A DNA stretch of 64,000 nt from an uncultured Cytophagales bacterium (GCA_938002655.1 CALLAC010000002.1:20823-84822), one strand, 5' to 3'; shown: positions 3,845 through 58,672, counted from the stretch's first letter. Made by a program: numbers and translations. The notes: generated from the sequence alone by a model not told the origin.

Positions 3845-4135
3845 TCTAAAAACTACCAAGCTAAAAATTGTATTTTTAGCCTCTTTGTTCAAAAGATAAG
3901 TAGGTAAACAAGCCTTTTTCATACGATTTTTCGTTTTGAGTTTCCAAAAAAAGACAGTAAAAAAAGTAGGTTTCTATAATTGTTTTGACAAAAACCTTCA
4001 AGGAATGCAAAGTGTCAGTTTTTAAAGTTAGATAATATTACAAAAAGACTTGTTTAATTGATTTTTTTGATGAATACTACTTGTTTTCGAAAGGTAATCA
4101 AAAAAAAGTGATTTTTTTTAAAAAAAATAATTTTT

Positions 4136-30264: not shown

Positions 30265-30693
30265 TTATCTTGTTTCCATAGAGCAAGCATTACACAAACC
30301 TTGAATAAGCAAATTGAACTCTTTGGCTACAAAGCCCTCAGGTAAAGAAATTTTAGGAATAATTGTGTTATCCAAACATCGGGTTTTCCCACAAGTAGAA
30401 CATTTGAAATGAACGTGGTTGTGATGATGTTCGTCCATAGAGCAGTAATGCGGCGAGCAGAGAGCATATTTAGGCGTGCCTTCGTCATCTAAAACTTTAT
30501 GAATAATCCCTTTTTCTAAAAAAGTTTTGAGTGTTCGGTAAAGTGTTACTCTATCAAAGGCAGGCACTAAAATTTTTTCTAAATCGTTGTGGCTGATAGC
30601 AAAGTTTTTACTAATAAATATAGCTAATGTTTCCAAACGACAAGCCGTATGACGCAACTGATGTTTGTTAAGAATGCTGACAGCAACATTCAT
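30265..30693 (-). CDS. Fur-family transcriptional regulator (His/Cys-rich, Zur-like candidate)
   Basis: DRVTLYRTLKTFLEKGIIH helix-turn-helix; EHHHNHVHFKCSTCG; C-terminal CNAC. Confidence 0.9.
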   Translation of the reverse strand: MNVAVSILNKHQLRHTACRLETLAIFISKNFAISHNDLEKILVPAFDRVTLYRTLKTFLEKGIIHKVLDDEGTPKYALCSPHYCSMDEHHHNHVHFKCSTCGKTRCLDNTIIPKISLPEGFVAKEFNLLIQGLCNACSMETR

Positions 30694-30796
30694 AAAATTA
30701 TTTTTTTGCTCGCTACAAAAGTAGTATTTTTTTGCAATATCTGAACAATTTTATTTTTTTTAGCGTTTATGCAAAAAACCTAAAATCTATAAGTCT

Positions 30797-37070: not shown

Positions 37071-37181
37071 ATGAAAAGCCTTCTATCTTTGGGTTTTACG
37101 CTAAAATGAAATTAGCTTTTGGAAGTCAAACGACGATTTCCTATAATCCTGCCAATCATTGTAATCTTGTTGTAAAATGCC

Positions 37182-39548
37182 ATGAACTTGAAATTCTTTT
37201 ACTCTTTTTCTGTCTTATTTGTATTTCCAATTTTACTTTTGGCTCAAAAAGCAACTCTGCAAGGCAAAGTATTTGATGAATACCAAAAACCACTGGAAAC
37301 AGCTATTGTAGGCGTACCCTCTTTGGGCATAGGAACAAACACTAACGCACAAGGCTTTTACAGCTTACAAATCCCCGCCAATCAGGTTTTACGTATAAAA
37401 GTAAGTTATCTGGGCAAAAGCAAAGATACTACCTTGCAAGCATCGGAAAATACTACTTTGGAAATCAATTTTTACTTAAAAGTTAGTGAAATTGAAGCTA
37501 TTAGCATAATAGGAAGAAAACAAGATTCATTGCAACGTTTACAAGTCAGTACCTTTCACCTCAATGCCAAACGTTTGGAAGCTATGCCTTCGGCTTTTGG
37601 TGATTTCAATAAAATTTTGGCTACGCTTGCAGGCGTAGTGAGCAACAACGAACTCTCCTCTACTTATTCGGTGCGTGGGGGTAATTTTGATGAAAACCTT
37701 GTGTATGTCAATGATATTCTGATTTATCGTCCATTCCTTATCAGAGCAGGACAGCAAGAAGGCTTGAGCTTTATCAATCCCAATTTAGCCGAAGAGGTAA
37801 GTTTTTCATCAGGAGGTTGGCAAGCCAAATATGGCGATAAACTCTCTTCAGTATTATCCGTAAATTATCGTAAGCCCACTCGTAAAGGTGGTTCGCTTAC
37901 TTTGGGCATTTTGAACAATCAGGCTCATGTAGAAGGATTGAGCAAAAATCAGAAGTTTACTTATCTGCTGGGTATCAGACGCAAAAATTCTCGCTATCTG
38001 CTTCGAACTCTGCCCGTAAAAGGGGAATATTTACCTCAATTTATTGACTTTCAAGGTTATTTCACCTATCAACTTTCCTCGAAATGGACAGCCGAATTGC
38101 TCACGTCTTATGCTCAAAATCGCTATTTGGTGCGTCCTGCAAGTCAGCAAAGTACTTTTGGAACAATCAATAGGGTACTGAGGCTTTTTGTGGCTTTTGA
38201 AGGGCAAGAACTCATGAACTACGATATTACCCAAAATGCTATCAAATTGAGCTACCACGATGACAAACTTCAAAGCAATTGGATACTCTCGCAAGTTTTT
38301 ACCATAGAACGCGAATACTCAGAAGTTGAAGGTAGCTATCGGCTCTGCGAAGTCAACCCTAATTTTGGTACGCAAGGTTTTAATGAATGTATACTCACCG
38401 TAGGAATTGGCTCAGAGTATTTACACTTACGCAACCGCTTTCAAGCACAAATTTATGCACTGGAAAACCGCTCTATCTACGATTGGAGCCCTACGCATCG
38501 TAGCGAAGTAGGCTTTCGATTTAGCCACGAAATCATTGATGATGTATTGCAAGAATATAATTTTCTGGACTCATCGGGCTTTGTGCGTATCAATTACCGA
38601 AATTTTGCAAGTAATTTTCTTGCAAGCCATCGTTTTGCAGGATTTTTACAACACCAGTGGGATATTGATAGCCGACAACGCCTTACGGCAGGGTTTCGGC
38701 TTAGTTATTGGAGTATGAATCGTGAGTGGGTAGCCTCTCCTATTTTGCAGTATGGGGTGCGTGCTACCTCAAAAGATATGATTTGGAAGTTTGCCATAGG
38801 AATGTATCAGCAGCCACCTTTTTACCGAGAACTACGAAGTTTTGAAGGGAATTTGAATTTGGCTTTGCTTTCGCAAAAATCTTTACAACTGATTGCAGGC
38901 AACGATTGGAGCTTTAAGGGCTGGGGCGAAAGAACATTCAGATTTACCAACGAAATCTATTACAAATATCTGTGGGAGCTTGTGCCATACGATGTAGATA
39001 ATGTTCGTTTGCGTTATTATCCCACTAATGATGCTTTCGGATATGCCTACGGCTGGGATATGCGTATCAGTGGAGAGCTTATCAAAGGTACAGAGTCTTG
39101 GTTTTCGATGAGTTTGATGCGAACCGAAGAAAATGTTGCCTTTGATACCCAAGGGTTTATCCGCCGTCCTACCGACCAACGTTTCACTTTGGGGGTATTT
39201 CTGGAAGATTATTTGCCCAACAACCCTACTTGGCGAATGAATTTGAATTTGGTATGGGGCTCGGGCTTACCTTTCAATGTTCCGAATAATCCGAACTTAC
39301 GCAATGTTTTTCAAGGAAAAGCATTTCGCAGAGTAGATATTGGTTTTTCGAAATTTATTGATAAAGTTCGCTTCAAAGGTAAAACGCTCTTTCAATCTCT
39401 TTGGATAGGAGCCGATATATTGAACTTACTGGCAATCAACAACCCTGTTTCATATTCTTGGGTAAGCGATCTGAACGGGCAACGCTATGCTATCCCCAAT
39501 ACGCTTTCGGCAAGATTTATAAACCTACGAATGATTGTCAAATGGTAA
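37182..39548 (+). CDS. TonB-dependent receptor-like outer-membrane protein with N-terminal carboxypeptidase-regulatory-like domain
   Basis: Signal peptide; N-terminal GKVFDE...GTNTNAQGFYSL...VSYLG domain; plug motif SVRGGNFDENLVYVNDI and GGWQAKYGDKLSSVL; beta-barrel body. Confidence 0.85.
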   Translation: MNLKFFYSFSVLFVFPILLLAQKATLQGKVFDEYQKPLETAIVGVPSLGIGTNTNAQGFYSLQIPANQVLRIKVSYLGKSKDTTLQASENTTLEINFYLKVSEIEAISIIGRKQDSLQRLQVSTFHLNAKRLEAMPSAFGDFNKILATLAGVVSNNELSSTYSVRGGNFDENLVYVNDILIYRPFLIRAGQQEGLSFINPNLAEEVSFSSGGWQAKYGDKLSSVLSVNYRKPTRKGGSLTLGILNNQAHVEGLSKNQKFTYLLGIRRKNSRYLLRTLPVKGEYLPQFIDFQGYFTYQLSSKWTAELLTSYAQNRYLVRPASQQSTFGTINRVLRLFVAFEGQELMNYDITQNAIKLSYHDDKLQSNWILSQVFTIEREYSEVEGSYRLCEVNPNFGTQGFNECILTVGIGSEYLHLRNRFQAQIYALENRSIYDWSPTHRSEVGFRFSHEIIDDVLQEYNFLDSSGFVRINYRNFASNFLASHRFAGFLQHQWDIDSRQRLTAGFRLSYWSMNREWVASPILQYGVRATSKDMIWKFAIGMYQQPPFYRELRSFEGNLNLALLSQKSLQLIAGNDWSFKGWGERTFRFTNEIYYKYLWELVPYDVDNVRLRYYPTNDAFGYAYGWDMRISGELIKGTESWFSMSLMRTEENVAFDTQGFIRRPTDQRFTLGVFLEDYLPNNPTWRMNLNLVWGSGLPFNVPNNPNLRNVFQGKAFRRVDIGFSKFIDKVRFKGKTLFQSLWIGADILNLLAINNPVSYSWVSDLNGQRYAIPNTLSARFINLRMIVKW

Positions 39549-45048: not shown

Positions 45049-45618
45049 TTAGGGTGCAAGCGTAACATTAAACGTAATATTAAAGTCCTGTTCGCCGCCA
45101 ATATTAGGATTGTATACCCAAGGTGTAGCAGATAAGTTTTGCGACTTAATAGGATTATGCACAAGTATCATCTGCAAATTTCCACCTCCTGCATTTGAGT
45201 TAGTTGTCACTCTGGCTCGTAAACCTATTGGCTTTCCATTGCTATCCTGGTCTCTGTACTGAAAACTAGTAAACAACGTGGAGGGGAAACCATAGTATAT
45301 TTGGTGTTCATTGGCTTCTTCAATAATTTCTCTTGTAATATCTACTCCATTTTCACCTGCAATGGATACGTCAATATCATACGTAGTACTTGGTTTTAGT
45401 GTACCGTTCTGAATTACAGGCGGATTGCTCCCCAAGCCGTCATCGTCTTGCCAAGTCATAGTTACAGTTTCAGAACCTGAACTAAAACGCACCACTACTT
45501 TAGTAATTAGTTCTTGCTCGTTGTGGTCGTGGTCATGGTCATCTTTTTTCTTTTTACAAGCTCCCAAAAATACTGCTCCTGCAAGTAAGAAAGCTGAAAT
45601 TTTGTGTAAATTTTTCAT
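45049..45618 (-). CDS. His/Asp-rich lipoprotein, putative metal-binding partner of the TonB receptor
   Basis: Lipobox LGAC followed by KKKKDD; DHDHDHNEQELIT; EANEHQIYY and LVHNP motifs. Confidence 0.8.
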   Translation of the reverse strand: MKNLHKISAFLLAGAVFLGACKKKKDDHDHDHNEQELITKVVVRFSSGSETVTMTWQDDDGLGSNPPVIQNGTLKPSTTYDIDVSIAGENGVDITREIIEEANEHQIYYGFPSTLFTSFQYRDQDSNGKPIGLRARVTTNSNAGGGNLQMILVHNPIKSQNLSATPWVYNPNIGGEQDFNITFNVTLAP

Positions 45619-45641: not shown

Positions 45642-48014
45642 CTAAAAAATATAAGAAAGTTGTAAGATAAAATTTCTGCCTATTTCATTGGCATAGTAAC
45701 GCCAACGATTCAGATAGTCTCTGTAAATGGTGTTAGCCAGATTTTCCACCTGCACATTCGTTGTAAATCCTTTGTAAGTTGTACTTGCTCCTATACTCCA
45801 TAGCCAATAGGCACTAGGAGCAGGCATAAAATCAAAACTACCTTCTGAAAGAATTTGCTGTTTTTCTTCTGTGCTAATGTTTCCAAAGCGAGTAGGCTCT
45901 ACTACACGAGGAGCATTGTTTTGCTTTGCTACATACAAGACATTCACAAAAAATGAAGTATTTTGTAATTTACCCCAACTCTTACGTTCCCAAGCAATTT
46001 TATTTTCCCAACGCAACGGAGGCATATTGATAACAGCTTCTTTATTCTTTCTGACAAAAGCGTTCAGATACGAAAATTTGCTTTGCCATTGCCAATTTCC
46101 TTGATAAAACTTTTGCATAGCATCTATTCCACGCAAAACAACATCTTTCTGCACATAGCTAAACACAGGAAAATACCCCTGAATAGTCAGACGAATATCA
46201 GTAGGTGTTGCATAGATGAAATTATCAATCCACTGATGATAAGGGCTTATTTCCCATTGCCAAGCGTTTTTCTGATATTGAACAGTGCTTATCCATTTGT
46301 AAGATTTTTCCAAAGCAAAAGGCTTATCGGGGTTGAGTGAGCCTCCTTCAAAAAGCAAACCTTCTTGTATATTGCCAATGCCCAAATGCAATCCTTGGCT
46401 AAAAAGTTCGGCAGTGTGCGGAGGACGCACCGTAGTAGCCAAATTCGTTTTTATTACAACATTTCTCCATTTTCGGTACCAATAGCCCACAGTAACCGTT
46501 TTCCAATGAAATTGATAATTAGGTGTAAGACGCAACCTGTTGCGTACGGCTTGTACTTCGGTATGCCGAAAATCATAACGCAACCCCCACTCTATTTCGT
46601 AGGCAGGTTTCACAAAGCGTTCTATCCAAAAAAGCCCTTGCGAAAAGTTGGTGAAATTCGGTAGAAGCGGTGTAATACCCGTACCTGGTACATTGTAGTT
46701 ATCTTGCCAAAGTATATTCAGCCCCAAAGAACCTCGAAAATTTTTCCAGGCATGATGCTCCAAAATGGCATCAAGAGTGTGTGTTTGAAGTTGTAAAGAA
46801 AGAGCAGGAATAGTAGAACGCCCCCCTCGACGTATATCGAACTCTTTTCTATCGTTCCATTGCAAAGCATATTGCAGAGAAAGTATTCCCAAATGATTTA
46901 AGGTAATTTTACTGCTCAATTTAGCTAAATAATGCACGATTTTCTGACGAGGGTTCTGAATTTCGTATGTAAAAGGAGCTACATACCAAGGCTGAGGACG
47001 GCTAATGGAAACTGTGAGGTCGTTGATATTGCCTGTATGGGCGGCACGTAAAATGCCTATCTCGGCATCATACCGACTGAAATAGGCTTCTGCTTGCCAT
47101 TTTTTCCGTTCTACACCCAAAGTAGCTGCAAAATTAAGCTCTTGCATACCTGTATTCGAAAGCACATAGGTAGGTGAACGGAAGTCTCCGCCCCGCTTTG
47201 CTGAACCTTGCCAGCGCCAAGCCCAGCCTTTACCAAAGGCTTTTTCCATTTGCAGAGCTAAATTTCCCATTCGGTTATTGCTATGCCCTATCAGGTAGAC
47301 TTTTCCGTGCAATTTTTTTTCGGTAGGTAATGGTAGAGGGTTGAGTATCACTACGCCGCCCATAGCATCGGAGCCATAACGAACCCCTGCCGCCCCTTTG
47401 ATAACACTCACTTGCTCAGCTGAAAAAACATCTATTTCTGGGGCGTGTTCTTCTCCCCATTGTTGCCCTTCTTGGCGTATGCCATTGTTTAGTATCATAA
47501 TTCTTTGCGAGTGCAAGCCATGAATAATGGGCTTGCTGATACCCGCACCTGTACTAAAAGTGTATACACCCGTAATATTTTTCAATGTCTCACCCAAAGT
47601 TTTTCCACGCGATAGTTCCAACTCCTGCCTGCTCAAAAAACTTTGTGTTTGCGTAGAAAGTGGCTTTTCCATATTTCCAAGCACTTCTACACTTGCTATT
47701 TGCTGATTATCTGCCTGCAAGAAAATATCTTTATGAAAATGCTCATTTTTTTTGAGTTGTAAAACAATTTGCAAAGGCAAAAAACCTTCTTTTTCTAAAA
47801 AAACTTGATATTCACCTTCACATACATTTTCTAGTGCAAACTCTCCTTCTATATTCGTTTGTAACACTTTGCCCAAAGGCTCTATCCGAACCTGCACTTC
47901 TGGTAAAGAAATTTTAGTATCTTTCTGAAAAATATGCCCATGTATGCTTGCCGTGCATTGAGCATACAACTCTCCCCACAAAAATCCCCATACCAACAAG
48001 AAAATGCTTTTCAT
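45642..48014 (-). CDS. TonB-dependent receptor, probable metal uptake
   Basis: Signal peptide; N-terminal carboxypeptidase-regulatory-like domain; plug ISKPIIHGLHSQRI...QEGQQWGEEHAPEID; VIKGAAGVRYGSDAMGGVV; C-terminal NLANTIYRDYLNR...GRNF; terminal Phe. Confidence 0.92.
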   Translation of the reverse strand: MKSIFLLVWGFLWGELYAQCTASIHGHIFQKDTKISLPEVQVRIEPLGKVLQTNIEGEFALENVCEGEYQVFLEKEGFLPLQIVLQLKKNEHFHKDIFLQADNQQIASVEVLGNMEKPLSTQTQSFLSRQELELSRGKTLGETLKNITGVYTFSTGAGISKPIIHGLHSQRIMILNNGIRQEGQQWGEEHAPEIDVFSAEQVSVIKGAAGVRYGSDAMGGVVILNPLPLPTEKKLHGKVYLIGHSNNRMGNLALQMEKAFGKGWAWRWQGSAKRGGDFRSPTYVLSNTGMQELNFAATLGVERKKWQAEAYFSRYDAEIGILRAAHTGNINDLTVSISRPQPWYVAPFTYEIQNPRQKIVHYLAKLSSKITLNHLGILSLQYALQWNDRKEFDIRRGGRSTIPALSLQLQTHTLDAILEHHAWKNFRGSLGLNILWQDNYNVPGTGITPLLPNFTNFSQGLFWIERFVKPAYEIEWGLRYDFRHTEVQAVRNRLRLTPNYQFHWKTVTVGYWYRKWRNVVIKTNLATTVRPPHTAELFSQGLHLGIGNIQEGLLFEGGSLNPDKPFALEKSYKWISTVQYQKNAWQWEISPYHQWIDNFIYATPTDIRLTIQGYFPVFSYVQKDVVLRGIDAMQKFYQGNWQWQSKFSYLNAFVRKNKEAVINMPPLRWENKIAWERKSWGKLQNTSFFVNVLYVAKQNNAPRVVEPTRFGNISTEEKQQILSEGSFDFMPAPSAYWLWSIGASTTYKGFTTNVQVENLANTIYRDYLNRWRYYANEIGRNFILQLSYIF

Positions 48015-48021
48015 TTTTTAT

Positions 48022-48064
48022 CTCAACTTTGTTGCAAAAATATAAACATTGCAACATAGTTGCA
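48022..48064 (-). promoter_or_regulatory. Tandem palindromic operator boxes overlapping the TonB receptor promoter
   Basis: Minus strand TGCAAC-TAT-GTTGCA (48064-48050), 13 nt, TGCAAC-AAA-GTTGAG (48036-48022); TTTG and TATTTTTG 20 nt apart overlap the boxes. Confidence 0.7.
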
Positions 48065-48166
48065 AACAAAATAGGGCTTTTTTCAACAAAATACCACAAA
48101 TGACGTATGTTAGGGATTGGTAGTTTGCATATTTTTGCTGCTGCATTAAGTAAAAACACAAATACT

Positions 48167-56035: not shown

Positions 56036-56079
56036 TTTGCAACTTTGTTGCTTTTTTGTATGTTTGCAACAAGGTTGAA
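56036..56079 (+). promoter_or_regulatory. Tandem operator boxes overlapping the merC-like promoter
   Basis: TGCAAC-TTT-GTTGCT (56038-56052), 12 nt, TGCAAC-AAG-GTTGAA (56065-56079); TTTG at 56036-56039 and TATGTTTG at 56059-56066, 19-nt spacer. Confidence 0.7.
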
Positions 56080-56082
56080 ACT

Positions 56083-56472
56083 ATGAAAGGCTTTTATCAT
56101 AAGTTTGTAGCTAAGTTAGGATTTTCACTTTCATTACTTTGCGGCTTGCACTGTCTTGCCACCCCTGCTCTGCTTGCTTGTATGCCTGCCGTAGCCGAAT
56201 GGTTTTCAGAAGAAGTAGAAATAAGCATTACTTTGTTTAGCTTTTTTATCGGCTTTTTGGTGCTTTGGAAAGATTTGCGTTTGCATAAATTTACTATTCC
56301 CTTACTTTTGCTAATTTTTTCTTTTACCCTTATCCTGATAAGCCAGATTTTTGTTCATAGGCACTTTTTGGATATTTTGGGCATTGTAGGCATTGCTTTG
56401 GCATATCTTTGGAATTGGCATAAAGTTCGCCAGTTACGTATGTGTGCCTGTGTGGTAAATACCTCTGAATAA
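56083..56472 (+). CDS. MerC-domain membrane protein
   Basis: LSLLCGLHCLATP motif, four TM helices, His residues and C-terminal CAC; true start Met 56083. Confidence 0.8.
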   Translation: MKGFYHKFVAKLGFSLSLLCGLHCLATPALLACMPAVAEWFSEEVEISITLFSFFIGFLVLWKDLRLHKFTIPLLLLIFSFTLILISQIFVHRHFLDILGIVGIALAYLWNWHKVRQLRMCACVVNTSE

Positions 56473-56554: not shown

Positions 56555-58672
56555 ATGCTTTTGCGAAAAAATGCTGTTATTGCCTCTTCTATTAGCTTTT
56601 TTGTTACTTTTATCATTTCACTCTACATTTGGGGCTTTCAGATGCCCTCGGTTACGCTTCTGAAAAGTTTAGGTTTAGCTTGGTTTATTTTGCTTTTACC
56701 TCAATTTTTATCCAAACCTTCCAAACCTATCTGGTGGCGAACTTACAGCCTGCAAAGTGTGTATTTGCTTTTAAGCCTTGCAAGTTTAGGATTTCTGAAA
56801 CGCTATGCAGAATGGATAGGATTTTTGAGTTGGGTTACTGCTCTGTTGGGTATTCTTGTTGGCTTATACACTTTCGGAGCTATTGCAAGTTCTCGCACTT
56901 TTTACCTGAAAAAAATAGCAGGATATCTATTTTTGGCATTTTTAGTGGGTAGCTACCTGCTGGGGCATATCTACAAATTTGCTTTTTCCCCTATCCTTCT
57001 CGAAAACTTTTCTGCACTAAACGTACCGTATACTTATCTGGACACGGTGTATCATAGTGCCTGTGCCAAAATGCTTCAAACCTATGAAGTTTTTACCACA
57101 GGTTTGGACGGCACTATTCCGATGAACTACAACGTTTTTACGCATTGGCTTAGTAGTCATTTGGCTTATTTCTTTGAAATACCTATTCACCAATACTACA
57201 ACCTCACGTATCCGATTGTATTTTTTGCTTTTTGGGTTTTTACTTTTTTAGAGCTTGTTCAAAAGCTTTTTACTTTTTTTGCTCAAAAAAGAGCTTCTTC
57301 GCTTAGTAACTTACCTACCTCGATTTGGTTTTGGGTAATTTTCTTGTGTATTCTTTTCCCATTGCCCGATAATATTTATACAAGAGGACTTTTAGGATTA
57401 CATTTCACTCAAACACACACTTATACCATTGCTTTGAGCTTGTTTTTTATTTTCATAGAAAGTCTTATTGCTTTTTGGCAGGAAGAAAAAAAACAAGTAG
57501 CTTTTGTATGGTTATTTTTTCCTGTGTTCAGTTTCATTTTAGGAACAGCCCATGTAGCCATTGTAGTAGCTATTACGGCAGGAACAGGCTATTTGTTTTT
57601 ACGAAAAAAGCTTTTTATGAAATGGCATTATTGGATTTGGATTTTGCTTGTACTATTCAATTTAGTGATTTGCTATTTTTTTACAGCCGAAACTATTCCT
57701 TTCAGTGGTCGGGAAAAAAGCTACGAGGGACGAGTAGAGTGGTTTCATTTTTTCCGACAGGAACAGTTTGAACCATTCAATTTCTGGGTTATTTTTTATA
57801 GTACTTTGTATTTGGTAACCTTTCTCTATATTTGGAACGAAAAAATTACCTTCAAAAATTGGCTTCGTAGAACTGATACCATTCTTGTTGAATTGCTATG
57901 GGTAGTAGCATTGGCGGGCATAGTTCCCAACATAGTGCTTGCTCTTTATGGTAGTACAGGAATGTATTTTTTGAGCGTACAAAGATTTTTAGCGTCGGCT
58001 TTTTTGCTTGCATATTTTCCCTTTATTCCTACTCTGCATTTTAGCTTTTGGAAATGGCTCAAATATCCTGTATTTATAGGAATAGCCTTGCTGATGTACA
58101 TGATGTATCGAAACAATTTCAATGACTCTTGGGAGGCAAATTTTCAAGCTCGCAAAAATATTATGCAAATCAATGATTTTTCTTGGAAAGCTACCCATTA
58201 TATTGAAAATCTATTTCACCCCCAACACCCCGATTGGCAAAAAGCAAAAAGAATATTCAGCGATAGTCTGCAAATCAAAATCCAACAAAATAGCTACTAC
58301 CAATTTATCCAAAAGATTGCAGAACTGGATAAATTATTTATTTCCGAAAAAAAAGAGGCTTTGTTGTATATTCCTTTTCATAAACTTCATTTTCAGCAAT
58401 GGGAAACAATCTTTGCAACCCAAGATGGCATGTATTTGGTGGGTATTTCGGGTCTTGCTCTTCTCAATGGTTTGCCTCATCCCAAATATCCTGTAGGGGC
58501 GTATGGTTTCAGCTATTACGACCATAACTTACGTGAAAAAACCTGGACACAAGGTTTTACAACAGAAGAACTCAAAAAATTAACTCTCCAAAAGGGGTTC
58601 AAATATTTATATGTTTTTCAGCCTGAAAAGCAGGGTTTTGAAAAAATCATTTGCTCTGAGCCAGCAAAATAA
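56555..58672 (+). CDS. Large polytopic membrane protein, possibly GT-C fold
   Basis: Many TMs; periplasmic-type loop with DTVYHS...GLDGTIPMNY; soluble C-terminal domain. Confidence 0.6.
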   Translation: MLLRKNAVIASSISFFVTFIISLYIWGFQMPSVTLLKSLGLAWFILLLPQFLSKPSKPIWWRTYSLQSVYLLLSLASLGFLKRYAEWIGFLSWVTALLGILVGLYTFGAIASSRTFYLKKIAGYLFLAFLVGSYLLGHIYKFAFSPILLENFSALNVPYTYLDTVYHSACAKMLQTYEVFTTGLDGTIPMNYNVFTHWLSSHLAYFFEIPIHQYYNLTYPIVFFAFWVFTFLELVQKLFTFFAQKRASSLSNLPTSIWFWVIFLCILFPLPDNIYTRGLLGLHFTQTHTYTIALSLFFIFIESLIAFWQEEKKQVAFVWLFFPVFSFILGTAHVAIVVAITAGTGYLFLRKKLFMKWHYWIWILLVLFNLVICYFFTAETIPFSGREKSYEGRVEWFHFFRQEQFEPFNFWVIFYSTLYLVTFLYIWNEKITFKNWLRRTDTILVELLWVVALAGIVPNIVLALYGSTGMYFLSVQRFLASAFLLAYFPFIPTLHFSFWKWLKYPVFIGIALLMYMMYRNNFNDSWEANFQARKNIMQINDFSWKATHYIENLFHPQHPDWQKAKRIFSDSLQIKIQQNSYYQFIQKIAELDKLFISEKKEALLYIPFHKLHFQQWETIFATQDGMYLVGISGLALLNGLPHPKYPVGAYGFSYYDHNLREKTWTQGFTTEELKKLTLQKGFKYLYVFQPEKQGFEKIICSEPAK

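Follow-up and report, generated by a model that had tools for sequence, protein, structure and literature searches.

Tandem Zur-type boxes in the predicted promoters of a TonB-dependent receptor and a MerC-like gene: a candidate zinc regulon in Cytophagales and other Bacteroidota

We analysed a stretch of 64,000 nucleotides from an uncultured Cytophagales bacterium (GCA_938002655.1, CALLAC010000002.1:20823-84822), hereafter called the window. Pairs of 15-bp palindromes lie in two of its promoter regions, one upstream of the gene of a TonB-dependent receptor, the other upstream of that of a MerC-family membrane protein. A Fur-family regulator is encoded 17 kb from the receptor boxes. The relevant features are the following.

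30265-30693, minus strand: Fur-family regulator, putatively Zur-like (142 aa; Pfam FUR, E = 1.8e-9)
45049-45618, minus strand: lipoprotein (189 aa), with a DDHDHDH stretch after the lipobox Cys
45642-48014, minus strand: TonB-dependent outer-membrane receptor (790 aa), with Plug and CarboxypepD_reg domains
48022-48036, minus strand: box 2 of the TonB-receptor promoter, TGCAACAAAGTTGAG, with two mismatches, both in the final two bases
48035-48042, minus strand: predicted -7 element of the receptor promoter, TATTTTTG, whose end is the first TG of box 2
48050-48064, minus strand: box 1 of the TonB-receptor promoter, TGCAACTATGTTGCA, a perfect 6-3-6 palindrome
48063-48066, minus strand: predicted -33 element of the receptor promoter, TTTG, whose end is the first TG of box 1
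56036-56039, plus strand: predicted -33 element of the MerC-like promoter, TTTG, overlapped by box 1
56038-56052, plus strand: box 1 of the MerC-like promoter, TGCAACTTTGTTGCT
56059-56066, plus strand: predicted -7 element of the MerC-like promoter, TATGTTTG, overlapped by box 2, after a spacer of 19 nt
56065-56079, plus strand: box 2 of the MerC-like promoter, TGCAACAAGGTTGAA, followed by 3 nt and the ATG at 56083
56083-56472, plus strand: MerC-family membrane protein (129 aa; Pfam MerC, E = 4.4e-15)
56555-58672, plus strand: polytopic membrane protein (705 aa), downstream of the MerC-like gene

On the minus strand, the sequence leading up to the receptor gene is TTTG-TTTGCAACTATGTTGCA-ATGTTTATATTTT-TGCAACAAAGTTGAG-ATAAAAA-ATG. 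The two boxes are 13 nt apart, the spacer between the -33 and -7 elements is 20 nt long, and the ATG (48014) lies 7 nt past box 2, within which the predicted start site falls. In both promoters the TTG of the -33 element (TTTG) and that of the -7 element (TAnnTTTG) are part of a box. The boxes overlap consensus elements, and these make up the predicted core promoter. A sequence-only reading of this region had described the perfect palindrome, the near-copy 13 nt further on, the overlap with both elements and the 20-nt spacer, and every one of these details was correct. The same two-box layout that it had reported ahead of the MerC-like gene was also found, as listed above. Within each pair the boxes are spaced by 27-28 bp, because both promoter elements are embedded in them (4 + 19 or 20 + 4). 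This distance does not correspond to whole helical turns, and hence does not imply cooperative binding of two dimers; independent binding is as likely as cooperation.

Measured against TGCAAC-N3-GTTGCA, the four boxes comprise one perfect site, two with one mismatch and one with two. Sites with at most one mismatch occur three times in 64 kb, when 0.31 are expected, and none of 100 shuffles reached three. All of them fall in the receptor and MerC-like promoters. When up to three mismatches are allowed, the number of sites (37, for 35 expected) is that of chance, so that only strong sites are informative. The remaining four sites with two mismatches (at 1161, 11660, 15416 and 41254) lie inside long ORFs and were rejected. 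The promoter pattern itself, TTTG-N18-21-TAnnTTTG, is found 16 times in the window, for 4.0 expected, and these include both promoters with boxes. A weak palindrome (TTGTAATCTTGTTGTAA, 37159-37175) is placed 7 nt before a second TonB receptor gene (37182-39548). It has three mismatches and is probably not a site, since such matches occur at chance level.

The best NCBIfam matches of the receptor are weak and concern the heme-receptor and ZnuD families (78.5 bits for the ZnuD model, whose cutoff is 950). It would be the first gene of the proposed repressed operon. The lipoprotein gene begins 23 nt past it, and given this short gap the two are probably co-transcribed. A protein search with the lipoprotein retrieved 13 homologs. 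The lipoprotein has no match in Pfam, NCBIfam or the PDB sequences. Its AlphaFold model is an all-beta sandwich (mean pLDDT 80), for which Foldseek returned only generic beta-sandwich matches in the PDB (E above 1e-3, TM below 0.4). The DDHDHDH stretch is present in the lipoproteins of Raineya, and members of the family stand directly behind tandem boxes in at least ten other Bacteroidota loci. The MerC-like proteins share an invariant S-x2-C-x2-H-C-x3-P motif in our alignment, and no gene family occurs more often than MerC immediately after the tandem boxes of Bacteroidota. The 705-aa protein, which has no match in Pfam, NCBIfam or the PDB sequences, is found only in the Raineya group and always after the MerC-like gene. 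Its gene is separated from the latter by 82 nt and has a -7-like element of its own (TATTTTTG) about 20 nt upstream; its inclusion in the MerC-like regulated unit is uncertain. The window encodes none of the classic zinc markers (COG0523, ZnuABC or a zinc-free ribosomal paralog), and the targets of its boxes are only plausible uptake genes.

The promoters are conserved in related genomes. For the receptor, identity reaches 91% with its counterpart in another uncultured Cytophagales genome and 86% with the one in Raineya orbicola. The sequence-only reading had made conservation of the motif upstream of orthologs a test of its proposal, and box 1 is kept in all five orthologous loci whose receptor is at least 60% identical (L001-L004 and L009). 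Box 2 is kept in the three closest ones, L001-L003 (TGCAACAAAGTTGAA). Across these orthologs (91 to 60% identity), the half-sites are retained, the three central bases vary (TAT, TTT, ATT, AAA) and the flanks diverge. The MerC-like promoter is conserved in the same manner, with half-sites that are kept and a variable N3, and its box 1 is retained in L069, L086, L082 and L138. In the closest relative of the window (L001), an insertion of about 55 nt (about 3915-3985) has moved the ATG away from box 2, and the boxes hold their position relative to the -33 and -7 elements despite the longer leader. This indicates that they are part of the promoter and are not tied to the translation start.

The same intergenic region contains another conserved block, TACGTCATTTGTGGTATTT (48089-48107, minus strand), between box 1 and a divergent gene of the OmpA family. 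Its sequence is the same in the window and three genomes of the Raineya group, where its flanks diverge; it occurs once in the window, and L004 and L009, which are more distant, lack it. The block might serve the divergent OmpA-family lipoprotein gene as a promoter or an operator, and this gene probably begins in reality at the ATG around 48168 (MRIVVIWLSIILLLSTCQ).

We then characterized the Fur-family regulator. Its best NCBIfam match is Zur (PRK11639), with 48.9 bits for a cutoff of 167 in a model that describes the enterobacterial equivalog. Its best relatives in the PDB are the Zur proteins of E. coli (E = 2.8e-9), M. tuberculosis and S. coelicolor. When aligned with E. coli Zur, for which the ligands and the roles of residues have been described (PMC4219657, PMC6103462), the regulator keeps seven of the eight zinc ligands. 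In the sensing site, H77, C88 and H96 correspond to H65, C79 and H91 of the regulator, and the fourth ligand, E111, is replaced by T104. The Cys4 structural site is complete (C98, C101, C134 and C137, for C103, C106, C143 and C146 in E. coli). The base-contacting R65 is conserved, and Y45 is replaced by N36. Taken together, the structural relatives and the zinc ligands suggest that the regulator is Zur-like. Its own promoter region (30694-30796) contains a half-site but no box, and zur also lacks a box in the orthologs of the Raineya group.

We fetched 80 loci encoding orthologs of the regulator by protein similarity (50-88% identity), i.e. independently of the motif. The box, with at most one mismatch, is present in 58 of them (70 sites, for 1.2 expected), although the set is dominated by one genus, Dyadobacter, and the 58 loci are therefore not independent events. 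It is mostly perfect and placed around 100-200 nt upstream of zur, with half-sites that are nearly invariant and a variable N3. For example, Dyadobacter luteus has a box between zur and a divergent MerC-like gene, with a receptor-lipoprotein pair next door, which brings all four components of the window into one locus. The suggestion of the sequence-only reading that a shared Fur-family repressor, plausibly the one at 30265-30693, controls these genes is supported by the proximity of its orthologs to the boxes.

The same reading had proposed a search for enrichment of the motif upstream of COG0523 genes, and this is what we found. Among 80 loci fetched by similarity to a COG0523 protein of the ZigA/YeiR type, 52 carry the box (83 sites, for 0.4 expected). 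Nearly all these boxes are upstream of the gene, often as pairs 36-40 nt apart. They were found in Flavobacterium, Sphingobacterium, Pedobacter, Chitinophaga, Hymenobacter, Saprospiraceae, Cecembia, Dyadobacter and Draconibacterium, while none of the six Firmicutes loci in the set has one. In Saccharicrinis (L101), a zur-COG0523-merC operon lies behind tandem boxes.

To obtain a broader view of the tandem form, we scanned 185,579 species genomes. This revealed 71 loci, where a rough calculation based on 23 fixed bases gives an expectation of around 0.1. Ten of them were excluded because they were short tandem-repeat arrays or other matches outside promoters. Six of the loci (L099, L112, L129, L071, L080 and L119) are arrays of 15-26-nt tandem repeats containing TTGCAAC-N3-GTTGC, and come from unrelated genomes. 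The loci that remain after exclusion are in intergenic promoter regions, mostly of Bacteroidota, with some in Acidobacteriota, Planctomycetota and beta-proteobacteria. The genes adjoining the tandem boxes of Bacteroidota encode TonB receptors with a Plug domain (15), MerC (10), FUR (8), DUF4625 (5), ABC transporters (4), SCO1/SenC (3) and cobW, i.e. COG0523 (2). The eight Fur-family genes are counted among 126 proteins of these flanking operons. Fur-family proteins of box-controlled operons are 36-50% identical to the regulator of the window, and such genes occur in Chitinophagaceae, Cyclobacteriaceae, Flavobacteriales, Marinilabiliales and Planctomycetota. In the other phyla, three cobW, two FUR, ZnuA, FolE2, Amidase_3 and a nicotianamine synthase are among the genes next to the boxes. 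Some of the regulon members found in other genomes, SCO1/SenC and MerC for instance, are more familiar in connection with copper and mercury.

The motif has been catalogued before, in another phylum. The candidate beta-proteobacterial Zur sites in Additional file 5 of Haas 2009 (PMC2770081) include gAAATGCAACAAgGTTGCATTTa before Rmet_1098 (yciC-folE2-cysS2-queD2), and two such boxes before Mfla_1232. Since this supplement lists the same core, the palindrome of the window is a known Zur box, letter for letter, which supports the initial suggestion of a zinc regulon. The box of Cupriavidus, Ralstonia and Methylobacillus has an identical TGCAAC-N3-GTTGCA core with A/T-rich flanks, and the extended consensus that we derived from the sites ascertained by protein similarity (wwwwTGCAAC-AnT-GTTGCAwwww) matches the 23-nt sites of Haas 2009, aAAATGCAACATTGTTGCATTat. 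The resemblance extends to the targets: in both cases the box is found before zur, COG0523 and receptor genes, and promoters with two boxes occur. The differences concern the host and the regulon. In Bacteroidota the boxes are fused to -33 and -7 elements rather than to -35 and -10 elements, and the leading members of the regulon described here are a MerC-like protein and a new family of lipoproteins, whereas that of beta-proteobacteria features ZnuABC or ZupT. The regulator of the window is only about 23% identical to the beta-proteobacterial one that lies beside the same box (L121). The literature we searched contained neither a Zur box of Bacteroidota nor MerC-like proteins in Zur regulons. 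The element is thus a known type of operator, with a known mechanism, in an unstudied phylum-level setting.

These observations suggest the following model, to which we give a probability of roughly 80%. Each 15-bp palindrome would be the operator for one dimer of the Zur-type repressor encoded at 30265-30693. With zinc in adequate supply, both boxes of each promoter would be occupied by Zn-loaded Zur, one dimer covering the -33 element at box 1 and the other covering the -7 element and the predicted start site at box 2. With both elements covered, RNA polymerase could not bind. When zinc becomes scarce, the sensing site would empty, Zur would leave the DNA and two units would be transcribed. 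The first, the TonB-dependent receptor and its lipoprotein, would act in capture at the outer membrane; the second, the MerC-like membrane protein, is a candidate for the inner-membrane step. The presence of two boxes per promoter would be expected to result in tight repression, lifted only under marked starvation.

This model has precedents. Promoters with two boxes are known from the cobW1 operon of C. metallidurans, yciC of B. subtilis and znuA of S. coelicolor, where one box lies over the upstream promoter element and the other over the downstream one, as predicted for the window. This layout has been tied to tighter repression that is lifted only under severe zinc starvation; the cobW1 operon, with its two Zur sites, is an example of expression confined to such conditions (PMC10882993, PMC6103462). 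The window differs from these cases in that the geometry of the promoter fixes the spacing at 27-28 bp. The receptor recalls the ZnuD-type receptors of Neisseria, Caulobacter and Pseudomonas, which are TonB-dependent receptors under a Zur box, but it is far below the cutoff of the ZnuD family and is paired with an uncharacterised lipoprotein. The operator of znuABC in E. coli has a different sequence, of the GAAATGTTATAWTATAACATTTC type. The repressor that reads it resembles ours in its fold family, the Cys4 site, three of the four sensing ligands, the base-contacting Arg and the proposed logic of repression by promoter occlusion; it differs in placing two dimers on one operator, where the window has two separate boxes, and in having Tyr45 instead of N36 (PDB 4MTD; PMC4219657). 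The classical Fur or PerR boxes (7-1-7 or 19 bp, or n-1-n with GATAAT/TTATAAT) were rejected as an identity for the element, which has a 6-3-6 layout and a GCAAC core.

The alternative that best withstands the evidence is a repressor of the same Fur-family type that senses another metal (Ni or Co, as Nur does, or Mn, Fe or Cu), in which case the regulon would import that metal. The S. coelicolor Nur box (tTGCaa-N5-ttGCAA; PMC2691836) is likewise the target of a Fur-family protein; it contains a GCAA core and, as a split palindrome, departs from the n-1-n form. The perfect box of the window fits it. One may add that the weak family matches of the receptor include heme, B12 and copper receptors, that SCO1/SenC, CobN and MerC are among the flanking genes, and that one sensing ligand of E. 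coli Zur is not conserved in the regulator. Yet the fit to TTGCAA-N5-TTGCAA is a formal one. Positions C6 and G10 of our box, which fall in the free N5 of Nur, are 91% conserved, while the outer T/A are conserved in only about 50% of the sites. There are also no nik or sod genes among those flanking tandem boxes. The regulator itself is more distant from Nur than from the three Zur structures (E = 7.6e-3 for Nur, 2.8e-9 for the best Zur), and it has the Cys that is diagnostic of Zur (C88 in E. coli). Finally, the box is enriched before COG0523 genes and accompanies ZnuA and FolE2, all of them typical of zinc regulons. On these grounds we rejected a Nur box or regulon as the main reading, and we consider a metal other than zinc improbable.

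The repeats could also have nothing to do with a repressor. They might be promoter elements with bases that are similar by chance, or the arms of a hairpin acting on transcription, RNA stability or translation. Every box does open with the TTG of a promoter element, and folding of the 61-nt region gives -18.7 kcal/mol (z = -4.1). Furthermore, the N3 of box 2 in tandem operators tends to be the reverse complement of that of box 1. We analysed this covariation in 55 tandem operators spaced by 24-31 nt (L069-L138). The N3 are fully reverse-complementary in 17 of the 55 operators, for 3.5 expected, a count in which some loci are related or appear on both strands. All three positions are significant, and the middle one is enriched for complements, not for identities. 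The pairs of the window are complementary at two of the three positions, and those of its close relatives at all three. However, the flanks show no such complementarity and G:T pairs are as frequent as A:C pairs (12 and 13), so there is no signature of the RNA type. No Rfam family reaches its threshold. A transcript from the predicted start, inside box 2, would leave box 1 untranscribed. The right half-sites, GTTGCA, are conserved even though they lie outside any promoter consensus, single boxes are found upstream of zur and COG0523, and the same boxes occur in phyla whose promoters are of the TTGACA/TATAAT type. Hence, we judge this explanation very improbable, and the covariation may have other causes: template switching at quasi-palindromes, a dyad-symmetric pair of dimers and recent inverted duplication are all possible.

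That a regulator of another family (MerR, ArsR/SmtB, MarR or other) reads the palindrome, the association with Fur-family genes being indirect, is equally hard to credit: MerC genes are classically under MerR control, the 6-3-6 layout is not the usual 7-1-7 of the Fur family and a MarR gene follows the MerC-like gene in one locus (L138), but of the 25 families that head the list for genes beside tandem boxes, FUR is the only one that binds DNA, and the boxes lie over the -33 and -7 elements instead of being centred in the spacer like MerR sites. A MerR-type operator was rejected as the identity of the element for the same position of the boxes and for the lack of MerR among the most frequent flanking families.

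Repression by Zn-loaded Zur thus remains the reading that we favour. Since the mechanism is a textbook one, its value lies in annotation and in candidate transporters, not in a new principle. Zinc regulation in Bacteroidota is little described, and the box allows regulons to be predicted by scanning the genomes of Flavobacteriia, Sphingobacteriia, Cytophagia, Chitinophagia and marine Bacteroidia. What is comparatively new is that the MerC-like protein and the uncharacterised lipoprotein recur as members of the regulon. These, i.e. the MerC-like protein and the lipoprotein family of 45049-45618, together with the DUF4625 proteins, are nominated for a role in zinc acquisition. A bolder reading, which we regard as speculative and rather doubtful in its entirety, is that MerC-family proteins with the S-x2-C-x2-H-C-x3-P motif are inner-membrane zinc importers that act downstream of a ZnuD-like receptor and the new lipoprotein family and replace ZnuABC/ZupT, and that regulators only about 23% identical share one box specificity across Bacteroidota, beta-proteobacteria, Planctomycetota and Acidobacteriota.

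Some loci of the genome scan have an unusual organization. In Raineya sp. Prado078 (L108, 4597-4641), the tandem boxes are flanked by the ends of two genes that converge on them, and no long ORF follows; what they control might be a small protein or a small RNA. Two other operons behind boxes, in Cytophagaceae (L136) and Spirosomataceae (L110), are alike: a receptor gene (770 or 734 aa) is followed by genes encoding proteins of 102, 205 and 108 aa, and the operon of L136 continues with a gene encoding 1228 aa. The pooled Pfam families include DUF2149 (2), MotA/ExbB (2) and CobN (1). Judged from these pooled families rather than gene by gene, the genes of the two operons are probably DUF2149, MotA/ExbB and CobN. 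We take this arrangement to resemble the Zur-regulated CobN-like cluster of Pseudomonas.
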